This document shows positions 25,475 through 32,000 of a DNA stretch of 32,000 nucleotides, one piece after another. Origin of the DNA: Pirellula staleyi DSM 6068 (lineage in GTDB: Bacteria; Planctomycetota; Planctomycetia; Pirellulales; Pirellulaceae). The notes under the pieces are model-generated. The model saw only the letters and a list, made by a program, of their open reading frames with translations. It did not search any database and had not been told where the DNA came from. Position 1 is the stretch's first letter, and each line of letters begins with the position of its first letter. The DNA is taken from contig CP001848.1 of NCBI GenBank assembly GCA_000025185.1, forward strand, positions 150,001 through 182,000, written 5' to 3'. The translations under genes and the position numbers were made by a program.

Positions 25475-25548
25475 GGCGAGGTAGCTCAGTCGGTTAGAGC
25501 AGCGGCTTCATAAGCCGCGTGTCGCGGGTTCGAGTCCCGCCCTCGCCA
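25475..25548 (+). tRNA. tRNA with CAU anticodon, elongator type (tRNA-Met; lysidine-modified tRNA-Ile2 cannot be excluded)
   Basis: Cloverleaf folded by hand: acceptor GGCGAGG/CCTCGCC, D arm GCTC/GAGC, anticodon stem GCGGC/GCCGC with loop TTCATAA, T arm GCGGG-TTCGAGT-CCCGC, discriminator A. No CCA is encoded. The G1:C72 pair and the lack of a GGG/CCC anticodon stem argue against initiator tRNA. Confidence 0.9.
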
Positions 25549-25589
25549 CTTGATTAGCAGGATTTCGATCCTCCGTAATGATCCAGACA

Positions 25590-25636
25590 GGCTCTTCGTA
25601 AGGTGTTACCCACAAACGCTTTACGAAGAGCCTTTT
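25590..25636 (+). terminator. Strong Rho-independent terminator after the tRNA
   Basis: ggctcttcgtaa (25590-25601) pairs with ttacgaagagcc (25621-25632). The stem extends by 6 more pairs (2 wobble) to a 7-nt loop and is followed by TTTT (25633-25636). The 3' arm overlaps the last codons of the minus-strand ATP-grasp gene. Confidence 0.6.
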
Positions 25637-26808
25637 GCGTTCTTGACGCAGATACTCGCGGCGAGATTGGTGGTGAGGCTGGAGGCGATAGCTTGCTGGT
25701 AGGTCGAGCGGCTGTGGTGCTCGACACCCGGCAGCAGATCGCCGAAAGCGTTCCCCTCGAGGATGACGGCGCGGCGAAATCCGGGGGTCACAAGCAGGTC
25801 CCAGCCGACATAAAGCGCTGCGGGGAAGGCGGCGGCAGCCTGCTCGCAAAGCTGGGGGACGATCTTCCACCTGGCACCTGCGGATTGACGGAGCGCTGCG
25901 AGGTCGCCTCGGCGATTTCCCAAGTGCAAGTTGGTGAGGGGCGAACGACTCGTCCGGACCACCATGTGACACGCCTGGCCAGCGAAGGTGACCACCCGCA
26001 GGTCGAAGTTGCGATCGGCTTGCGATGCTTTAGGGAGCCACTCTTCTACATGGGCCCCCTGGCCCAGTAGAAAATCGAGGATCGTCCGGAGGTCGTGCTC
26101 GCGGTCGTAGTGCCGCAAACGCAAATTGTTGTAGAACCGCGCGGTGCCGCGTTGGCGGACGAGTTCGAGCGATGTCAGGCCAAGTGGACGGGGACCCGTG
26201 GTCGACAAAGCGACCACCCCCGACGACGACGAACCACCGTTGAGCTTTACAAAAACGCGAGACAGCTGCGCTCCCCGCATCGACTCGAGCAGCTGGTCGT
26301 AGCTGTGGATCGATAGCAGCACGCGTGGGACCGCCACTCCTTGGGCCAGCAGATGTGCGTGGCAACGCGTTTTGTCGAACAGCGTGCGAATCGCGTCGGG
26401 ATGATTCTGGACGGCGAGCCCCGGCAGCAGCTGCAGCTGCGTTTGGATTTCGTCGAGCGCGTGGCTAAATCCTGCCAGCCATTGCCGCGGATAACGGATG
26501 CGCCCCGGATCGCTGCGAAGTCGCATCGCCGAGGGAGCTGCGATGTCGTCAGTCGCTGGTGCGCCGCGCGCGATGAGCAGCCGCTCGACTTCAAAATCTT
26601 CCCCCGGCGATTCGATGCGAAGTATGCCGCGATTCTGGGCCAAACGCTCGAGGAGGGGCACGAGATCGACCTGGCCCCGCAGAAAATCGACATACGACAC
26701 CATAGCAGCGCGCTGCTGTCCCGACGCGCGTAGCGCTGCCTGAAACAGCTTCACACGCCGGTTCTGAGGATTTCCGAGGATGAGCCACCGACGCTTGTGG
26801 TCACTCAC
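25621..26808 (-). CDS. ATP-grasp-like protein, STM4014-family type
   Basis: ATP-grasp-like strands VFVKLNGGSSSSGVVAL, NFDLRVVTFAGQACHMVVRTSRSPLTNLHLGNRRGD and YVGWDLLVTPG..RAVILEGNAFGD. GTG start within GTGAGTGA, overlapping the upstream stop by 8 nt. The family name is recalled, not searched. Confidence 0.7.
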   Translation of the reverse strand: MSDHKRRWLILGNPQNRRVKLFQAALRASGQQRAAMVSYVDFLRGQVDLVPLLERLAQNRGILRIESPGEDFEVERLLIARGAPATDDIAAPSAMRLRSDPGRIRYPRQWLAGFSHALDEIQTQLQLLPGLAVQNHPDAIRTLFDKTRCHAHLLAQGVAVPRVLLSIHSYDQLLESMRGAQLSRVFVKLNGGSSSSGVVALSTTGPRPLGLTSLELVRQRGTARFYNNLRLRHYDREHDLRTILDFLLGQGAHVEEWLPKASQADRNFDLRVVTFAGQACHMVVRTSRSPLTNLHLGNRRGDLAALRQSAGARWKIVPQLCEQAAAAFPAALYVGWDLLVTPGFRRAVILEGNAFGDLLPGVEHHSRSTYQQAIASSLTTNLAASICVKNAKGSS

Positions 26809-28042
26809 TGATGGCGATGAAGCGTCCCGACCATTCGTTGTCCTCGTCTACCGTTTTGGCATCGGAGAGATCGACCGGGAATGGCAGCTGCTTCAACTTT
26901 TTCTGCATCGGCTTGCTGATGTAATGATGATGCAAATCGAGCCGCGTGAGGTTCGTTTTCGACGCCAGTTGCAGCAGCGCACTGGCCCCCACATCACTCA
27001 GATTACCGAGCGACAGATCGAGCACCTCTAGTTGATCGATGATCGGCGAGGTGACGATCACCGCGGCGATGTCGTCGGCAATTTCAGCGTTGCGAAGTCC
27101 CAGGTACTTGAGCTTGGGAAACAACTTTCCTTTCAGCAGCGGCTGCAGATCGTTCACACGACAGTCGCCACTGTAGTTGGGTGTTCCGAGCCAAAGTTCG
27201 AGGTACTCCAGCTGCGGAAATTTGCCGCGACAAATCTTCCCCACGATCTCTGCCGGGAGACCTCCCGATTCAATTCCCAGCGCGCGAAGCTGCGGATGTT
27301 CGGCGCTGCTGAAATCGAGCCCAGTCGCCCCACGTACGCGGAGCATTTCCAGGCCGGGAAACGACTTGAGAATCAGCGACATATCGCTCTGCTGAATCCA
27401 CGAAATCTCCGCCTCCTCTTGCACAATATCCCCGAGAAAAAGGGCTTTGAGCTGAGGCAATCGATCCTTGTGATGGGCGATCATTTCGACAAACTGGCCT
27501 TCCGACGAGCCCCCTTCCAGGTCGTAGGCACCGATCACGAGCCCCTTGGTTCCGGCGGCTGAATCGCTCTCGAGGAACGCCTGCAAACGCTGGTTAAAAT
27601 CAGGCTCGCCATCGTCCCCTTCTTCGTCGTACGAAACACGAACCCGCACCACACTTTTCCCCTTCAGACTCTTGCCACGATAATCGGCAATCCGCTGACC
27701 GATGAAATTATGCATCAGCTCGAAGTTCTCGCTGGGTGTGGTGCTGAAAAGCATCGGCGAGAGATGCTCGTCCCCCGCAGCGGCAGTGGTTGTGGCGCCT
27801 GCGACTTCAGCAGAACCGGAGGCCGCAGCACTCCCCTTCTCCACATACCCCTTGGTTGTTTTCTCAGCCACCAGTTTGTCGTACGCCTTTTGCGCCTCGG
27901 CAGCCGTGGCGAAGCTTTTGGTCGACTCTTGTCCCTCGGAGCCGATCCGACCGTACTTGGTCACGACATTGGTCTCTTGTAAGTCGATCTTCCAAAACTT
28001 AAACGACTTACCATCGGCGTACTCAAATTCCCGGAAGCTCAC
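26801..28042 (-). CDS. WGR-domain protein fused to ribonuclease-inhibitor-like leucine-rich repeats, STM4015-family type
   Basis: N-terminal WGR domain (FEYADGKSFKFWKIDLQETNVVTKYGRIGSEGQ...AEAQKAYDKLVAEKTKGY). C-terminal ~28-aa LRRs (LKYLGLRNAEIADDIAAVIVTSPIIDQLEVLDLSLGNLSDVGASALLQLA). GTG start 7 nt after AAGGAG. Confidence 0.8.
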   Translation of the reverse strand: MSFREFEYADGKSFKFWKIDLQETNVVTKYGRIGSEGQESTKSFATAAEAQKAYDKLVAEKTTKGYVEKGSAAASGSAEVAGATTTAAAGDEHLSPMLFSTTPSENFELMHNFIGQRIADYRGKSLKGKSVVRVRVSYDEEGDDGEPDFNQRLQAFLESDSAAGTKGLVIGAYDLEGGSSEGQFVEMIAHHKDRLPQLKALFLGDIVQEEAEISWIQQSDMSLILKSFPGLEMLRVRGATGLDFSSAEHPQLRALGIESGGLPAEIVGKICRGKFPQLEYLELWLGTPNYSGDCRVNDLQPLLKGKLFPKLKYLGLRNAEIADDIAAVIVTSPIIDQLEVLDLSLGNLSDVGASALLQLASKTNLTRLDLHHHYISKPMQKKLKQLPFPVDLSDAKTVDEDNEWSGRFIAISE

Positions 28043-28063
28043 AATGATTCTCCTTGGTGGGCG

Positions 28064-29035
28064 TCAGGTTTCTTTAACGGGCTGATACTTCTCGGGATCG
28101 TCGAAGCCGGCCATCCAAGCAGCCGCTTGTCGGCAAGACTTCATGGTGGGTGGGACACGAAGCACATAGTGCCGACCGGTCGAGGGACAGCGGCACGAGA
28201 GACTAACGATCGCTTCGTCCCCCTGCATCGGGACACGGAGTAGTTCGCGCGGTCCGCCAGGGTCGCGATCGCGGTCGAGCGTTTCGGCGCCCGCTTCGAG
28301 CATGAAGCGGTCGAAGCCCATGCGCTCGATCATCACCCGACGACGCTCGGCATTACGCTCTTTCAAAATGATTTTGGCTTGCAGTTTTTCTGGCTCAAAC
28401 GCGGTGATCCGATCGATCTGCACCCCTCGCCAGCGAATGCCATGTTCCTCGAGATGCTGCGGAACACTCGTGAGGCCACTTCCGGCTATTTCGATCCACG
28501 ATGTTACTTGCAGCTGTGGCGGAAGCTCCTTGATTTGCGGACAATTTCCGACGTCGAGTGTTCCCAGATGCGTGAGGCTCTCGGGAAGCGATGTGAGCGC
28601 CGTACAGCCATTCACGCTGAGCCCACCATGCTCGATGCGCGTGCTCGCGGGAAACTTTTGAATCTGGTCGCAGCGGCTGATGTCGAGGAACCAAACTTCC
28701 AGCCCTTCGGGAAGTTCGGTCAGCGCGCGACAGCCCGACACATTCAGCGTGCCGACATGCAAATCGGGTGGAAGCGATTTCAGTTGCACGCAGTTAGCCA
28801 GCGTCAGCACGCACTCGACCTGCAAATCGCTCGGAAGCTCCACGAGGTCGGTGCCGGTCGCATCAAGCTCGTAGCACGAGAGTCCGGCTGGCAGCTGCGT
28901 CAGCCGCGGCAGCCCTGGCTCGAAAAAATTCAGTTTCCCATCAACGCGTAGTCCGGCTGGCGCAGTCCCTTCGAGGATCTGCTTCACCATCAGGGCTTCG
29001 TACGTTTCGCGAGCCACAGGCAACTCCTCCGCCAT
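28064..29035 (-). CDS. LRR protein (8 short LxxLPxxL-type repeats, several Cys-containing) with a conserved ~120 aa C-terminal module of unknown function
   Basis: Repeats LTQLPAGL, LVELPSDL, LKSLPPDL, LTELPEGL, IQKFPAST, LTSLPESL, IKELPPQL, LTSVPQHL at ~21-23 aa spacing. The C-terminal segment ERNAERRRVMIERMGFDRF...CRCPSTGRHYVLRVPPTMKSCRQAAAWMAGF resembles a recurrent bacterial domain whose name I cannot state with confidence. ATG at 29035, 21-nt gap to the next gene. Confidence 0.7.
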   Translation of the reverse strand: MAEELPVARETYEALMVKQILEGTAPAGLRVDGKLNFFEPGLPRLTQLPAGLSCYELDATGTDLVELPSDLQVECVLTLANCVQLKSLPPDLHVGTLNVSGCRALTELPEGLEVWFLDISRCDQIQKFPASTRIEHGGLSVNGCTALTSLPESLTHLGTLDVGNCPQIKELPPQLQVTSWIEIAGSGLTSVPQHLEEHGIRWRGVQIDRITAFEPEKLQAKIILKERNAERRRVMIERMGFDRFMLEAGAETLDRDRDPGGPRELLRVPMQGDEAIVSLSCRCPSTGRHYVLRVPPTMKSCRQAAAWMAGFDDPEKYQPVKET

Positions 29036-29076
29036 GTGTGATTGGCTGGCACACCGGTTCCAACCGAAGCGCGCGT

Positions 29077-29376
29077 CTAGTCGCGGACCACAACGATGCG
29101 CTCGGGCGTATACTCACGCTGCCGCCAGACCCGATATTTCCCTTGCGGGAGCTCGATTTCTGCATGTTCCTGATGCACGACCGTGGCCCGCGGCGCGGCA
29201 ATTTCGAGGAACAGCTCGGGACCCGCTTCCCAGAGCAAAACATTGTCTTGCTCGCGAATCTGATGGCTATGGCCCGTCAGCTCGCCATGCGCCAGGGTCC
29301 GGTGGTTCAGCGACTTGGCCCCTGGCGGAATCTCGTTGACCTTTTGAATCAACACGTCGCCGTGACGAAATAGCAT
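29077..29376 (-). CDS. Small (99 aa) HxH/cupin-like protein of a family recurrent in phage and bacterial genomes; function unknown
   Basis: MLFRHGDVLIQKV..IP.GAK......LAHGELTGHSH......V.L......FLEI.....VVHQEHAEIELPQGKYRVWRQREYTP. The GDVL, GE.TGH.H, H.EH and QREY.P pattern matches a family I recognise without a name. AAGGA lies upstream of the ATG at 29376. Confidence 0.65.
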   Translation of the reverse strand: MLFRHGDVLIQKVNEIPPGAKSLNHRTLAHGELTGHSHQIREQDNVLLWEAGPELFLEIAAPRATVVHQEHAEIELPQGKYRVWRQREYTPERIVVVRD

Positions 29377-29425
29377 GATGGCGATCCTTGCATGGGGGGA
29401 GTAGATTGCTCCGAGGCGGTAGGAT

Positions 29426-29457
29426 TATACCAACTCTTTCAGGTTGGTATAGTTTTT
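29426..29457. promoter_or_regulatory. Perfect 9-bp inverted repeat (tataccaac N8 gttggtata) followed by gTTTTT, in the divergent control region of the cassette
   Basis: Read directly at 29426-29434 and 29443-29451. It is AT-rich relative to its surroundings and is the only strong symmetry element in the 136-bp divergent intergenic region 29377-29512. Confidence 0.35.
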
Positions 29458-29512
29458 CAAAACAGTTTTCAGCAGGACCAAGATTCACGCGCGACAAGCT
29501 GTGTAGGTTTTA

Positions 29513-30313
29513 ATGCGGGACATGAACGCCATCGTCGGAAGGTGCGATCTCCTTCTGCTCACGCTCGACACGCTGCGCTACGATGTGGCCCAGCAAGCGT
29601 GGGAGGCAGGTGAGCTGCCGGTGCTCGGTCAGCATCTTCCCGCGACTGGCTGGGAGCGAAGGCATACGCCCGCGAATTTTACGTACGCCGCGCATCACGC
29701 TTTTTTCGCCGGTTTTTTACCGACTCCCATCGCGCCGGGGCTCCATCCGCGCCTCTTCGCAGCCGAGTTTGCCGGAAGCGAAACCACCACATCCACCACC
29801 CACACTTTTCGCGAGCCCAATATCGTTGCGGGACTCGCAGCACGTGGCTATCACACCCTGTGCATCGGTGGCGTCGGATTCTTTAACATGCGGACAGCGC
29901 TCGGCTCGGTTCTCCCGGCGATGTTTGAGGAGAGCCACTGGTCGGAAGATTTTGGAGTCACTTGCGCCGCGTCGACCGAGCATCAAGTGCAACTGGCCAA
30001 CCAGCGTCTGCGCGAAATTCCTGCGACGGAGCGAGTGTTTCTGTTCATCAATATTGCGGCCATCCATCAGCCGAACTGCGGCTATGTGCCGGGGGCCACG
30101 GCCGATTCGCTGGCGACCCACCGGGCAGCGCTGCGCTACGTCGATCGCTCGCTCGCGCCGCTGCTGGCGACCCTGAAACGTCGCGCCCCCTTCTTTGCCA
30201 TCGTCTGCAGCGATCACGGCACAGCTTATGGCGAAGATGGCTATCATGGTCATCGCCTCAATCACCCGGTGGTGGGTGAGGTCCCGTACTTCGATTTCCT
30301 CTGGGAGAGTTAA
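29513..30313 (+). CDS. Alkaline-phosphatase-superfamily metallohydrolase, STM4013/SEN3800-family type
   Basis: N-terminal metal-site motif LLLLTLDTLRYD and C-terminal IVCSDHGTAYGEDGYHGH, typical of sulfatase/phosphodiesterase-type alkaline-phosphatase-fold enzymes. The ATG at 29522 is an alternative start. Confidence 0.75.
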   Translation: MRDMNAIVGRCDLLLLTLDTLRYDVAQQAWEAGELPVLGQHLPATGWERRHTPANFTYAAHHAFFAGFLPTPIAPGLHPRLFAAEFAGSETTTSTTHTFREPNIVAGLAARGYHTLCIGGVGFFNMRTALGSVLPAMFEESHWSEDFGVTCAASTEHQVQLANQRLREIPATERVFLFINIAAIHQPNCGYVPGATADSLATHRAALRYVDRSLAPLLATLKRRAPFFAIVCSDHGTAYGEDGYHGHRLNHPVVGEVPYFDFLWES

Positions 30314-30321
30314 ACGCTGCT

Positions 30322-30519
30322 AGTACTCCGCCTATCGATCCATGTCATTTTTGAGGGTGCCACTGGCATCTTGTCAGTGCAGAAGTTGGAAGGGGATGTT
30401 TTGGGCGAAAGCTGCCTCTAACACAGAGTCCATTGACACTTCTCACTGGGCAGAGCCCAGTGGCACACTCGATTGCAGTCTACTCATGTTTCCTGACATT
30501 GATCGATAGACGGAGTACT
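30322..30519. repeat. ~198-bp element bounded by 26-bp imperfect inverted repeats (24/26), with nested competing stems; MITE-like or a structured RNA
   Basis: Left arm agtactccgcctatcgatccatgtca (30322-30347). Right arm tgacattgatcgatagacggagtact (30494-30519). Inner stem gtgccactgg (30357-30366) pairs with ccagtggcac (30457-30466), which competes with the local hairpin cactggg-cagag-cccagtg (30444-30462). Confidence 0.55.
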
Positions 30520-30601
30520 GGCGCGCGACATCCGAGCGCACAGCACTCCATCAGCCGCACTTCCAAAGTGATCTCTCGTTCGAACACGTTCCGCCGAACC
30601 T

Positions 30602-31942
30602 ATGCTCGCAACTCCACCCCACACCTTGCTCGATCAGCTGCACGGCGATCCATATGTCGGCTATGCCTATTCGTATCCGCATAAAACGGCCTATCGCGCG
30701 CTCGAGCCACGCACTCTTGGCGAGGTGTGGGAGCACGAATCGCGCTCGGCCCTGTCGCTCTACATTCACATTCCGTTTTGCGAAATGCGTTGCGGTTTTT
30801 GTAACCTCTTCACCTACTCGCAGCCGGCCGACGACTGGGTGGCAAACTACCTGAGCGCTCTGGGGCGTCAGATGGAAGTGGTCGCCGAGCAGATTCCAGC
30901 AGCCCAGTTTGCGCAGCTGGCGCTTGGTGGCGGAACTCCCACCTTTCTGCAAACGGCGGAACTCGCCCAGTTGCTCGAGCAGCTGAAGCGAGTGCTCGAC
31001 GTTCCGCTGGGAAACCTGCCGATCTCGGTCGAAGCTTCCCCCGCCACCACCGACGACGAAAAATTCGCGCTGCTGCGGCACTATGGCGTCACGCGGCTGA
31101 GCCTCGGGATTCAGAGCTTCGATGCCGACGATCTTGGTGCCATCGGGCGTCCTCAGAAGCACGACGATGTAACCCGCGCCATCGAGCGCATCCGTCGCGC
31201 CGGTTTTCCGATCCTCAATCTCGACCTGATCTACGGCGGGGAAGCGCAAACGCGCCGAGGGTGGCTCGAGTCGCTCCGCGCAGCCGCGCAGTACGAACCC
31301 GAAGAACTCTATCTCTATCCGCTGTATGTTCGGCCACTTACCGGACTCGGATCGCGCCCCGCGAAAGCTCCCTCCGATCAGCGGCTCGAGCGCTACCGCG
31401 AAGCGCGCGACTGGCTCCTCGCGAATCAGTACGAGCAAGTTTCGATGCGGATGTTCCGCCGCATGGGCCCATGCGAACAGACGACAACCCGCTACGCTTG
31501 TCAGTCCGATGGGATGATTGGACTCGGCGTCGGAGCACGTTCCTATACACGTCAGCTGCACTACGCCTCGCGCTTTGCCGTGCGACAAAAATCGATCCTC
31601 GGCATCATTCGGAACTACATCGAGCAATCGCCCGCCGAGATGGGGACTGTCGCGCATGGCATCGAGCTCCACAACGAGGAGCAGCGCCGCCGCTACCTGC
31701 TCCTCTCGTTGCTGCAAGTCGAGGGGCTTGATGCGCGGGCTTATCAGCAGCATTTCGCCTCCGATCTCTGGAACGATTTTCCACAGCTGCGCGGGCTGGT
31801 CGATCACCACCTGGCCACCTTCGAAGGCGAGTTGCTAGCGCTCACTCCGGCAGGGCTCGAGCTTTCCGACGCGATCGGGCCGTGGCTCTACTCCAGCGAA
31901 ATCCGCGAGCGCATGGAGGGGTATGCATGGACCGATGCTTAA
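30602..31942 (+). CDS. HemN-like radical SAM protein, STM4012-family type
   Basis: LYIHIPFCEMRCGFCNLF (CX3CX2C), LALGGGTPTFL, RLSLGIQSF and a HemN-like C-terminal domain. The N-terminal YAYSYPHKTAYR is typical of HemN-like proteins. Confidence 0.9.
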   Translation: MLATPPHTLLDQLHGDPYVGYAYSYPHKTAYRALEPRTLGEVWEHESRSALSLYIHIPFCEMRCGFCNLFTYSQPADDWVANYLSALGRQMEVVAEQIPAAQFAQLALGGGTPTFLQTAELAQLLEQLKRVLDVPLGNLPISVEASPATTDDEKFALLRHYGVTRLSLGIQSFDADDLGAIGRPQKHDDVTRAIERIRRAGFPILNLDLIYGGEAQTRRGWLESLRAAAQYEPEELYLYPLYVRPLTGLGSRPAKAPSDQRLERYREARDWLLANQYEQVSMRMFRRMGPCEQTTTRYACQSDGMIGLGVGARSYTRQLHYASRFAVRQKSILGIIRNYIEQSPAEMGTVAHGIELHNEEQRRRYLLLSLLQVEGLDARAYQQHFASDLWNDFPQLRGLVDHHLATFEGELLALTPAGLELSDAIGPWLYSSEIRERMEGYAWTDA

Positions 31943-32000
31943 CCATCCTCTATCGCGGGCCACTGTCGAGTTGCAACTACGGCTGCGACTACTGCCCCTT
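31927..32000 (+). CDS. 5' end of a second radical SAM protein, STM4011-family type (runs off the right edge)
   Basis: My own translation of a frame absent from the ORF track: MDRCLTILYRGPLSSCNYGCDYCP, with CX3CX2C. The ATG at 31927 is preceded by GGAGG (31915-31919) and overlaps the upstream stop by 16 nt. Confidence 0.75.
   Translation, partial: MDRCLTILYRGPLSSCNYGCDYCP

Follow-up and report, generated by a model that had tools for sequence, protein, structure and literature searches.

Several ATP-grasp enzymes, including LysX/ArgX, RimK, MptN, CofF and their relatives, activate the terminal glutamate carboxylate on the tail of a protein or cofactor and add an amine to it. In the LysW/LysX (ArgX) system of Thermus, Sulfolobus and Thermococcus, the tail belongs to LysW, a zinc-ribbon protein of about 55 residues ending in EDWGE, and the later enzymes of the system (LysZ, LysY, LysJ and LysK) work on the group tethered to this carrier. 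RimK poly-glutamylates the C-terminus of S6 (RpsF), and MptN and CofF cap cofactor tails with glutamate. Here we analysed the STM4011-STM4015 gene cassette of Pirellula staleyi DSM 6068, which occupies positions 25621-32000 of a window of 32,000 nucleotides, the whole stretch of DNA under analysis (GenBank assembly GCA_000025185.1, contig CP001848.1, positions 150,001 to 182,000, forward strand). We tentatively propose, with a confidence somewhat short of an even chance, that the cassette might be a dedicated system chemically modifying the C-terminus of its own leucine-rich repeat (LRR) protein or proteins, STM4015, starting with a RimK/LysX-like ligation by the ATP-grasp protein STM4014. The existence of the cassette has already been catalogued, as the window proteins are members of the NCBIfam families NF038073, NF006067, NF038075, NF038074 and NF038076, which are named without a function; the mechanistic reading is new.

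The locus resembles the LysW system in that an ATP-grasp protein of the same fold clade stands beside a partner with an invariant C-terminal glutamate, and STM4015 is also acidic near its tail. It differs from the LysW system in several respects. STM4015-family proteins are LRR proteins of 280-520 residues (413 in the window, ending in RFIAISE), STM4014 is about 110 residues longer than LysX and scores far below the cut-off of the LysX model, and the place of the LysW downstream enzymes is taken by two radical S-adenosylmethionine (SAM) enzymes and phosphoesterases. Neither homologues of LysZ, LysY, LysJ or LysK nor a release hydrolase were found in 160 loci. The nearest characterised sequence clade to STM4014 is that of RimK-RpsF, MptN and CofF, but RpsF is unrelated to STM4015, and the RimK, MptN and CofF systems work without radical SAM and phosphoesterase enzymes. 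The core features of the locus are as follows.

25621-26808, minus strand: STM4014 family protein, 395 residues (NCBIfam NF038074, 382 bits, cut-off 175)
26801-28042, minus strand: STM4015 family protein, 413 residues (NCBIfam NF038076, 324 bits, cut-off 275)
26804-26824, minus strand: codons of the STM4015 C-terminal tail R-F-I-A-I-S-E, stop codon directly after; proposed recognition motif, with the terminal glutamate as the proposed residue on which STM4014 reacts
26804-27646, minus strand: STM4015 core of RNI-type leucine-rich repeats, residues 133-413 (extent of the NF038076 model)
27830-28018, minus strand: WGR domain of STM4015, residues 9-71 (Pfam, 67 bits)
29513-30313, plus strand: STM4013/SEN3800 family protein, 266 residues (NCBIfam NF038075, 410 bits, cut-off 250)
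30602-31942, plus strand: STM4012 family protein, 446 residues (NCBIfam NF006067, 555 bits, cut-off 380)
31927-32000, plus strand: STM4011 family protein, 5' end only, 24 codons (start of the NF038073 model)

The first line of evidence for a C-terminal modification came from the tail of STM4015. The protein consists of a WGR domain, a disordered linker, the LRR domain, an acidic stretch and a conserved tail, in that order. The sequence-only reading of the window had described it as a WGR+LRR protein, and both domains are present, although the WGR domain lies outside the STM4015 family definition; the N-terminal domain varies by lineage and may be WGR, HEAT-like or missing altogether. The tail follows a consensus in which an acidic stretch precedes R-[Y/F]-x-[A/S]-[V/I/L]-x-Glu-COOH (an example tail peptide is DEDNEWSGRFIAISE). 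Among 70 STM4015 copies located directly upstream of STM4014 in many phyla, 65 have the terminal glutamate and 62 fit the pattern R[YF]xxxxE$, compared with 56 of 1,404 control open reading frames (ORFs) ending in glutamate (4%). The five copies without a terminal glutamate look like decayed copies. For the window STM4015, each of the 120 database homologues ends in glutamate and 118 fit the pattern; the aromatic position is phenylalanine in the Pirellula clade (112 of 120). When all 4,296 ORFs in the first set of loci were considered, 133 bore the motif, and 128 of these are members of the STM4015 family. The tails always encode exactly one terminal glutamate. Distant tails keep this glutamate and a nearby aromatic residue without the arginine, as in YSYPMITE from Bacteroides fragilis (Protein Data Bank, PDB, entry 2RA8), YYPMITE from Bacteroides finegoldii, YMNAMYTE from Salmonella and YMNPMFTE from Escherichia coli LF82.

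An AlphaFold model of STM4015, calculated from an alignment of 38 sequences, has a mean predicted local distance difference test (pLDDT) score of 85.6, with a confident WGR domain and a confident LRR solenoid (pLDDT above 90 for the LRR part). The linker (residues 72-90) and the tail (residues 405-413) both fall below 50. The tail is thus the most conserved segment of STM4015, yet it is unpacked in the model. We read it as a linear motif recognised in trans because it is invariant and yet makes no packing contacts with its own protein. A structure of a WGR+STM4015 homologue is available from structural genomics (2RA8, B. fragilis Q64V53, E = 3e-59), but it is uninformative on the chemistry of the tail because the construct carries a C-terminal LEHHHHHH tag fused straight onto the conserved terminal glutamate.

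The second line of evidence is STM4014 itself. A database protein identical to the STM4014 of the window is assigned to P. staleyi. Its AlphaFold model (pLDDT 92.5) has the ATP-grasp fold, and the residues K146, K188, E255, D337, E351 and N353 of the catalytic site are invariant, including in the enteric and Bacteroides versions. When the model was compared with the PDB using Foldseek, the best matches were ArgX/LysX bound to LysW (3VPB, 3VPD and 5K2M); next came PsnB in complex with its precursor peptide, RimK (the RimK-RpsF complex among the entries), Ddl and peptide-bound MdnC. The match to LysX/ArgX constitutes an independent check, since the tail hypothesis preceded the fold search. At the sequence level, weak matches among 24 STM4014 members were to the RimK family (15 of 24), MptN (9 of 24) and LysX (3 of 24), and other members match CofF and RimK proper. 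STM4014 would therefore appear, from its sequence relationships, to be a separate family most similar to the RimK/LysX/MptN clade. The enteric and Bacteroides clades of STM4014 are without a segment of about 40 residues and without two motifs characteristic of the N-terminal domain, and these are also the clades whose STM4015 tails have no arginine, a weak hint that the N-terminal subtype of STM4014 and the tail subtype of STM4015 may co-vary.

STM4015 and STM4014 form the tightest pair of the cassette. In the window, STM4014 is translationally coupled to STM4015 through an 8-nt overlap between its GTG start and the STM4015 stop, and the pair is kept where STM4013, STM4012 and STM4011 are missing (loci L011, L071 and L075). 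The sequence-only reading had preferred a sensor or scaffold for the WGR/LRR protein. We favour a substrate or carrier instead, because an invariant, unpacked glutamate tail adjoins an ATP-grasp protein of the terminal-glutamate clade. This reading opens the function of the cassette to a direct test, for which Salmonella or E. coli LF82 would serve.

The paralogues of STM4015 are also better accommodated by a substrate. In Nostocales, up to eight tail-bearing STM4015 paralogues surround a single enzyme set, and those within one genome are about 40% identical to each other while retaining the tail. Such paralogue arrays, together with the varied N-terminal domains, are easier to reconcile with a family of functional proteins under a common modification than with one regulatory sensor. 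The arrays in Nostocales loci (including L034, L038, L054, L055 and L080) are tandem, with 5-8 paralogues having a common HEAT-like N-terminal domain. Scattered among them are WD40-repeat proteins with the same N-terminal domain and without the glutamate tail, and a triad of Hsp70-like, GrpE-like and DUF2997 genes adjoins the array in about 15 loci.

The gene set is conserved far beyond Pirellula. By scanning one genome per species, we identified relatives of STM4014 in at least 551 species; cassette-bearing species span at least ten phyla, and the family comprises 622 clusters at 50% identity (E <= 1e-30). The 80 loci taken for neighbourhood comparison came from Planctomycetota, Cyanobacteria, Chloroflexota, Acidobacteriota, Myxococcota, Bacteroidota, Actinomycetota, Armatimonadota and Proteobacteria, and the usual gene order is STM4015-STM4014-STM4013-STM4012-STM4011 on the same strand. 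In the 50 loci where STM4014 is flanked by 6 kb or more in each direction, a tail-bearing STM4015 was present in 46, STM4013 in 43, STM4012 in 42 and STM4011 in 43, with all four partners together in 38. The five gene types are thus co-conserved across phyla, as anticipated by the sequence-only reading. Its view that no biochemical or phenotypic assignment is known also agreed with our literature search on STM4011-STM4015, SEN3800 and DUF6745, which found no functional study and the cassette genes mentioned in three papers, in tables only.

In Salmonella and E. coli LF82, the cassette is a six-gene operon with overlapping genes, in which the five genes in the usual order are followed by a Cof-type haloacid dehalogenase (HAD) phosphatase, and the operon adjoins typA-glnA. 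Among 5,426 complete E. coli genomes, 158 (about 3%) carry the cassette, chromosomal every time, and the carriers include the adherent-invasive, Crohn's-associated strains LF82 and NRG857c. The LF82 cassette (L164) sits between the yih sulfoquinovose genes and typA. A Salmonella Senftenberg record labelled 'plasmid 3' (L161) holds typA, glnA and ompL and therefore looks chromosomal.

Within the window, positions 25621-32000 contain seven genes, arranged as two divergent operons with 136 bp between them. The minus-strand operon is transcribed in the order s99 (29077-29376), LD (28064-29035), STM4015 (26801-28042) and STM4014 (25621-26808), where s99 and LD are accessory genes described below, and the plus-strand operon in the order STM4013 (29513-30313), STM4012 (30602-31942) and STM4011 (5' end, 31927 onward). 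All five gene types of the sequence-only reading were found at the coordinates it gave, its division into two divergent operons is real, and the motifs it listed (PFCEMRCGFCNLF, GGGTPTFL, LDTLRYD, SDHG..GYHGH and SSCNYGCDYCP) are all present in the translations. Checking the positions also bore out a GGAGG Shine-Dalgarno sequence (31915-31919) ahead of the STM4011 ATG at 31927, which precedes the STM4012 TAA at 31940-31942 and gives an overlap of 16 nt. The family assignments, for which that reading had named profile searches as the check, were confirmed by the NCBIfam scores, as the four complete core proteins each exceed the curated cut-off. The claim of a complete cassette held for the presence of all five families but not for completeness inside the window, where STM4011 ends after 24 codons; these 24 residues match model positions 1-20 of NF038073 (32.7 bits, E = 4e-8, cut-off 200). 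In the closest relatives, STM4011 follows STM4012 at full length (for example in locus L010). The STM4011-STM4015 cassette is accordingly confirmed as real and correctly identified, with the one reservation that it is incomplete inside the window.

The remaining enzymes could act on what STM4014 produces. STM4012 is a HemN-like radical SAM enzyme with the CxxxCxxC and GGGTP motifs and a HemN_C domain (Pfam), but its scores remain under every HemN, HemW, ChuW and HemZ cut-off (143 bits for HemN, cut-off 325; 177 for HemW, cut-off 205; 141 for ChuW/HutW, cut-off 400). Its nearest solved structures are HemN (1OLT, 1e-27) and the class-C methyltransferase NocN (9P2U, 5e-20). STM4011 is the second radical SAM enzyme; at full length (locus L010) it scores 398 bits against NF038073 and only marginally, 23 bits for a cut-off of 21.5, against the SPASM domain PF13186. 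Its full-length relatives have the CxxxCxxC motif and the conserved cysteines C207, C225, C249, C254 and C256, so that the C-terminal domain resembles a partial SPASM or twitch-like domain; the protein shows weak similarity to AlbA, SkfB, anSME and DynA, radical SAM enzymes that modify peptides or proteins. STM4013 has a complete metal site of the alkaline phosphatase superfamily (D19, D234-H235 and H247) and an invariant T57-Y-A-A-H61 in place of the sulfatase motif C/S-x-P-x-R. In a profile-to-PDB alignment with choline sulfatase, T57 faces the catalytic cysteine and H61 the arginine of CxPxR, and STM4013 also matches the nucleotide pyrophosphatase/phosphodiesterase (NPP) family of phosphodiesterases. 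Because an invariant threonine occupies the position of the cysteine/formylglycine nucleophile, the sequence points to phosphoryl transfer rather than sulfatase chemistry for STM4013. PDB sequence searches with STM4013, STM4011 and the accessory protein s99 gave distant matches or none.

HAD phosphatases have joined the cassette at least twice, as type IA, which some loci carry between STM4014 and STM4013, and as the Cof-type IIB, which follows STM4011 in enterics. Two natural fusions were observed. One is STM4014::HAD-IA phosphatase (P0359, 601 residues), and the other is STM4011::Cof-type HAD-IIB phosphatase in B. finegoldii (L162:8142-9707, 521 residues), where the cassette is reduced to STM4015, STM4014, a 60-residue STM4013 remnant and the fusion protein, with no STM4012. 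This repeated recruitment and the two fusions argue for a phosphorylated intermediate. Another apparent fusion, of an ATP-grasp protein with an M3 peptidase (P0085, L245, 528 residues), was discarded as almost certainly an artefact of gene calling, its N-terminus being the C-terminal fragment of an M3 peptidyl-dipeptidase from a disrupted neighbouring gene.

Combining these observations, a possible course of the modification can be outlined. STM4015 would serve as the substrate or carrier, with its folded LRR domain (here with WGR), an acidic flexible stretch and the invariant glutamate tail. STM4014 would bind the tail, activate the terminal glutamate carboxylate as an acyl-phosphate and join it to an amine, which could be that of an amino acid or of an amino compound with a phosphoryl group. 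The SPASM/twitch-like STM4011, of a peptide-modifying type, and STM4012, similar to class-C methyltransferases, might then remodel the tail or the tethered group, and STM4013, with its threonine nucleophile, and in many lineages also the HAD phosphatase, would transfer or remove a phosphoryl group. Observed here are the gene set with its conservation, the invariant and unpacked tail, the fold and clade of STM4014 and the intact active sites, whereas the later reaction steps, the nature of the group added and the role in the cell are what we infer. The more elaborate version, in which a family of cytoplasmic LRR proteins is charged on the terminal glutamate and the radical SAM enzymes and phosphoesterases rebuild the tethered group into a new protein-bound adduct that could serve as a cofactor, as a signal or as an effector in conflict, with the s99 and DUF6745 genes as an accessory or a countermeasure, would be an undescribed kind of protein-templated chemistry and seems to us rather unlikely. 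If the proposed modification were true, the carrier-protein and C-terminal-tagging chemistry known from LysW, RimK and tubulin ligases would be extended to LRR proteins and to radical SAM tailoring, and a first clue would be gained as to why bacteria maintain STM4015-type LRR proteins in arrays.

Several observations weigh against a modification of the STM4015 tail by STM4014. That STM4014 acts on the tail is itself something that we infer. The low pLDDT of the tail could reflect the limits of the 38-sequence alignment, and the tail may be conserved for a different reason, because STM4011, STM4012 or some other partner binds it. The Foldseek ranking alone is not decisive because the competing ATP-grasp families LysX/ArgX, PsnB, RimK and Ddl have E-values that span no more than about three orders of magnitude. 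The RimK-family sequence scores of STM4014 are far under the family cut-offs (16 bits against a cut-off of 143 for the window protein and rimK_fam; best E-value of 2e-7 among the 24 members). STM4014 occurs without a nearby STM4015 in a few loci (L009 and L049). In the cassette loci, neither a conserved transporter or regulator nor a conserved amidase or peptidase able to release a product was found.

The model of the sequence-only reading, in which a free small molecule or nucleotide is the product or target of the enzymes and the LRR protein controls them as a sensor, regulator or scaffold, possibly in signalling or anti-phage defence, is in our view unlikely. In its favour are the resemblance of the optional HAD-IA phosphatase to YjjG-type nucleotidases and of STM4013 to NPP nucleotide phosphodiesterases, and the presence of two radical SAM enzymes. 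The LRR paralogue arrays resemble a receptor repertoire, the accessory s99 and DUF6745 module has many phage homologues, and the cassette has an accessory distribution in E. coli. A marginal signal of positive selection has been reported for STM4015 in Salmonella Typhi (q = 0.069; PMC2784778). This model, however, gives no reason for an invariant and unpacked terminal glutamate on the supposed sensor and leaves the terminal-glutamate-clade membership of the adjoining ATP-grasp protein unexplained. For defence in particular, no enzyme of the cassette matches a defence model in PADLOC-DB v2, where the search returned only a domain-level match to WGR_XIII (35 bits) and a 15-bit match at chance level, and no conserved effector-type domain (nuclease, pore or NADase) is present. 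STM4014 is absent from the IMG/VR viral contigs, and the flanking genes in the window are ordinary ones, encoding a PQQ-propeller protein (PQQ, pyrroloquinoline quinone), an amidohydrolase and a DUF4159 protein. A known defence system was rejected on the grounds of PADLOC, where the WGR match is a generic one, and of IMG/VR. Both the defence and the genomic-island readings are without direct support, although, given the paralogue arrays and the phage-related module, the cassette could still have a role in conflict.

A different use of the same tail would be the biogenesis of a ribosomally synthesised and post-translationally modified peptide (RiPP) or a peptide-derived cofactor, as for PQQ and mycofactocin, in which the STM4015 tail is a precursor that the radical SAM enzymes and the ATP-grasp protein cross-link or modify and that is then cut off as a small peptide-derived molecule, and the LRR domain is an oversized leader. 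PqqE cross-links the same two residue types, aromatic and glutamate, in PqqA as are conserved in the STM4015 tail, and ATP-grasp proteins are paired with SPASM radical SAM enzymes in the grasp-with-SPASM systems of NCBIfam. The cassette shares with PQQ, mycofactocin, sactipeptide and grasp-with-SPASM systems a radical SAM enzyme of the auxiliary-cluster type, a conserved C-terminal motif beside it, an ATP-grasp protein and several precursor paralogues per enzyme set, which is typical of RiPP clusters; the SPASM-type domain of STM4011 and its weak similarity to AlbA, SkfB and DynA point in the same direction. On the other hand, the match of STM4011 to SPASM is partial when compared with the RiPP enzymes (23 bits, five cysteines), and there is no short leader-core precursor. 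Neither a conserved peptidase nor a RiPP recognition element (RRE) or PqqD-like domain, nor an exporter, was found in the 160 loci. The would-be precursors are large folded repeat proteins with lineage-specific WGR or HEAT domains, suggesting that the protein itself is functional, and the phenylalanine at the aromatic position in the Pirellula clade excludes a quinone chemistry of the PQQ type. We therefore regard the RiPP explanation as improbable. Far less probable still is an ordinary maturation pathway, either anaerobic heme synthesis by a HemN/HemW-like STM4012 or a sulfatase, STM4013, with STM4011 as its maturase. The HemN-family domains of STM4012 and its historical annotation as coproporphyrinogen oxidase, the match of STM4013 to Pfam Sulfatase and a weak match of STM4011 to the anaerobic sulfatase maturase model all speak for such a role. 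Heme biosynthesis was nevertheless rejected, as STM4012 scores under the curated cut-offs for HemN-type enzymes and no heme genes are linked to it in the neighbourhood loci; the sequence-only reading had named a bona fide HemN as the finding that would speak against it, and STM4012 is not one. The sulfatase-maturase pair was likewise rejected, because the threonine that replaces the C/S-x-P-x-R motif in T-Y-A-A-H leaves no target for formylglycine formation. Neither version explains STM4014, STM4015 or the tail. Weighing these alternatives, a modification of the STM4015 C-terminus is the explanation that we prefer.

Two further genes belong to the minus-strand operon in this lineage.

28064-29035, minus strand: LD, LRR+DUF6745 protein, 323 residues; effector-type LRRs N-terminal, DUF6745 C-terminal (28067-28435, 74 bits)
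29077-29376, minus strand: s99, 99 residues (phrog_27831, E = 9e-13)

The invariant motifs HGD, GExTGHxH and HEEH of s99 suggest that it may be a small metal-binding protein. In a metagenome scan seeded with LD, we found at least 338 LD relatives, and s99 was directly upstream of LD every time. The cassette adjoins LD in most metagenome loci with enough flanking sequence, often as a single operon in the order s99, LD, STM4015, STM4014, optionally HAD, STM4013, STM4012 and STM4011. Five long loci (L085, L106, L118, L145 and L154) have s99-LD with 5-10 kb of flank and no STM cassette; the pairing of s99-LD with the cassette is therefore strong but not obligatory. Relatives of s99 are also found in at least 493 viral contigs, and a DUF6745 gene adjoins s99 in 48 of the 80 viral-contig loci examined (L165-L244). 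In the Microcystis phage Ma-LMM01, gp175-gp174 (L163) correspond to such an s99+DUF6745 pair located among replication genes. To judge from these homologues, s99+DUF6745 is a phage-related two-gene module that was recruited by one subtype of the cassette with an LRR domain added. The sequence-only reading was right in noting phage-like genes here, as the two-gene module is common in phages, and the LRR and phage-like genes that it mentioned are present; they are not extra, however, since both belong to the system in this lineage. All LD copies in our alignment end in ...AAW.AGFD.P..Y.P..ET. The possibility that this '...ET' end mimics the STM4015 tail was considered and rejected, because the phage DUF6745 proteins all have an [E/Q][T/S] end as well.

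The non-coding surroundings of the two operons contain the following features.

25475-25549: tRNA-Met (RNA scan)
25589-25633, no strand assigned: hairpin with a 19-bp stem and a T-run, between tRNA-Met and the 3' end of STM4014 (scan for terminator-like structures)
29377-29512, no strand assigned: divergent intergenic region of 136 bp between the two operons
30315-30527, no strand assigned: imperfect palindrome of about 205 nt between STM4013 and STM4012

The tRNA gene was the only element found by an Rfam scan of the window, with no riboswitch or other RNA element. Its adjacency to the cassette had been pointed out before and is real here but specific to this genome, as a tRNA lies near the cassette in only one of 11 close relatives. 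A tRNA-adjacent integration island was rejected, given the lack of a tRNA in 10 of the 11 relatives and the flat GC content across the window. The hairpin at 25589-25633 overlaps the STM4014 stop codon 40 nt past tRNA-Met and is probably, from its stem and T-run, a bidirectional terminator closing the minus-strand operon. In the divergent intergenic region, a perfect palindrome with 9-bp arms, TATACCAAC-N8-GTTGGTATA, is located at 29426-29451 and was considered as a candidate operator; a conserved operator in the divergent promoter was rejected, as the region fails to align among relatives with the same divergent layout. The gap between STM4013 and STM4012 is 288 bp here compared with 0-100 nt in relatives, and it holds the palindrome at 30315-30527, which has nested inverted repeats of 29 and 27 nt (dG -105 kcal/mol, z = -8.2) and is single-copy in the window. 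This palindrome, which lies outside the conserved cassette, could be an insertion resembling a miniature inverted-repeat transposable element (MITE) or a hairpin for mRNA processing or attenuation.

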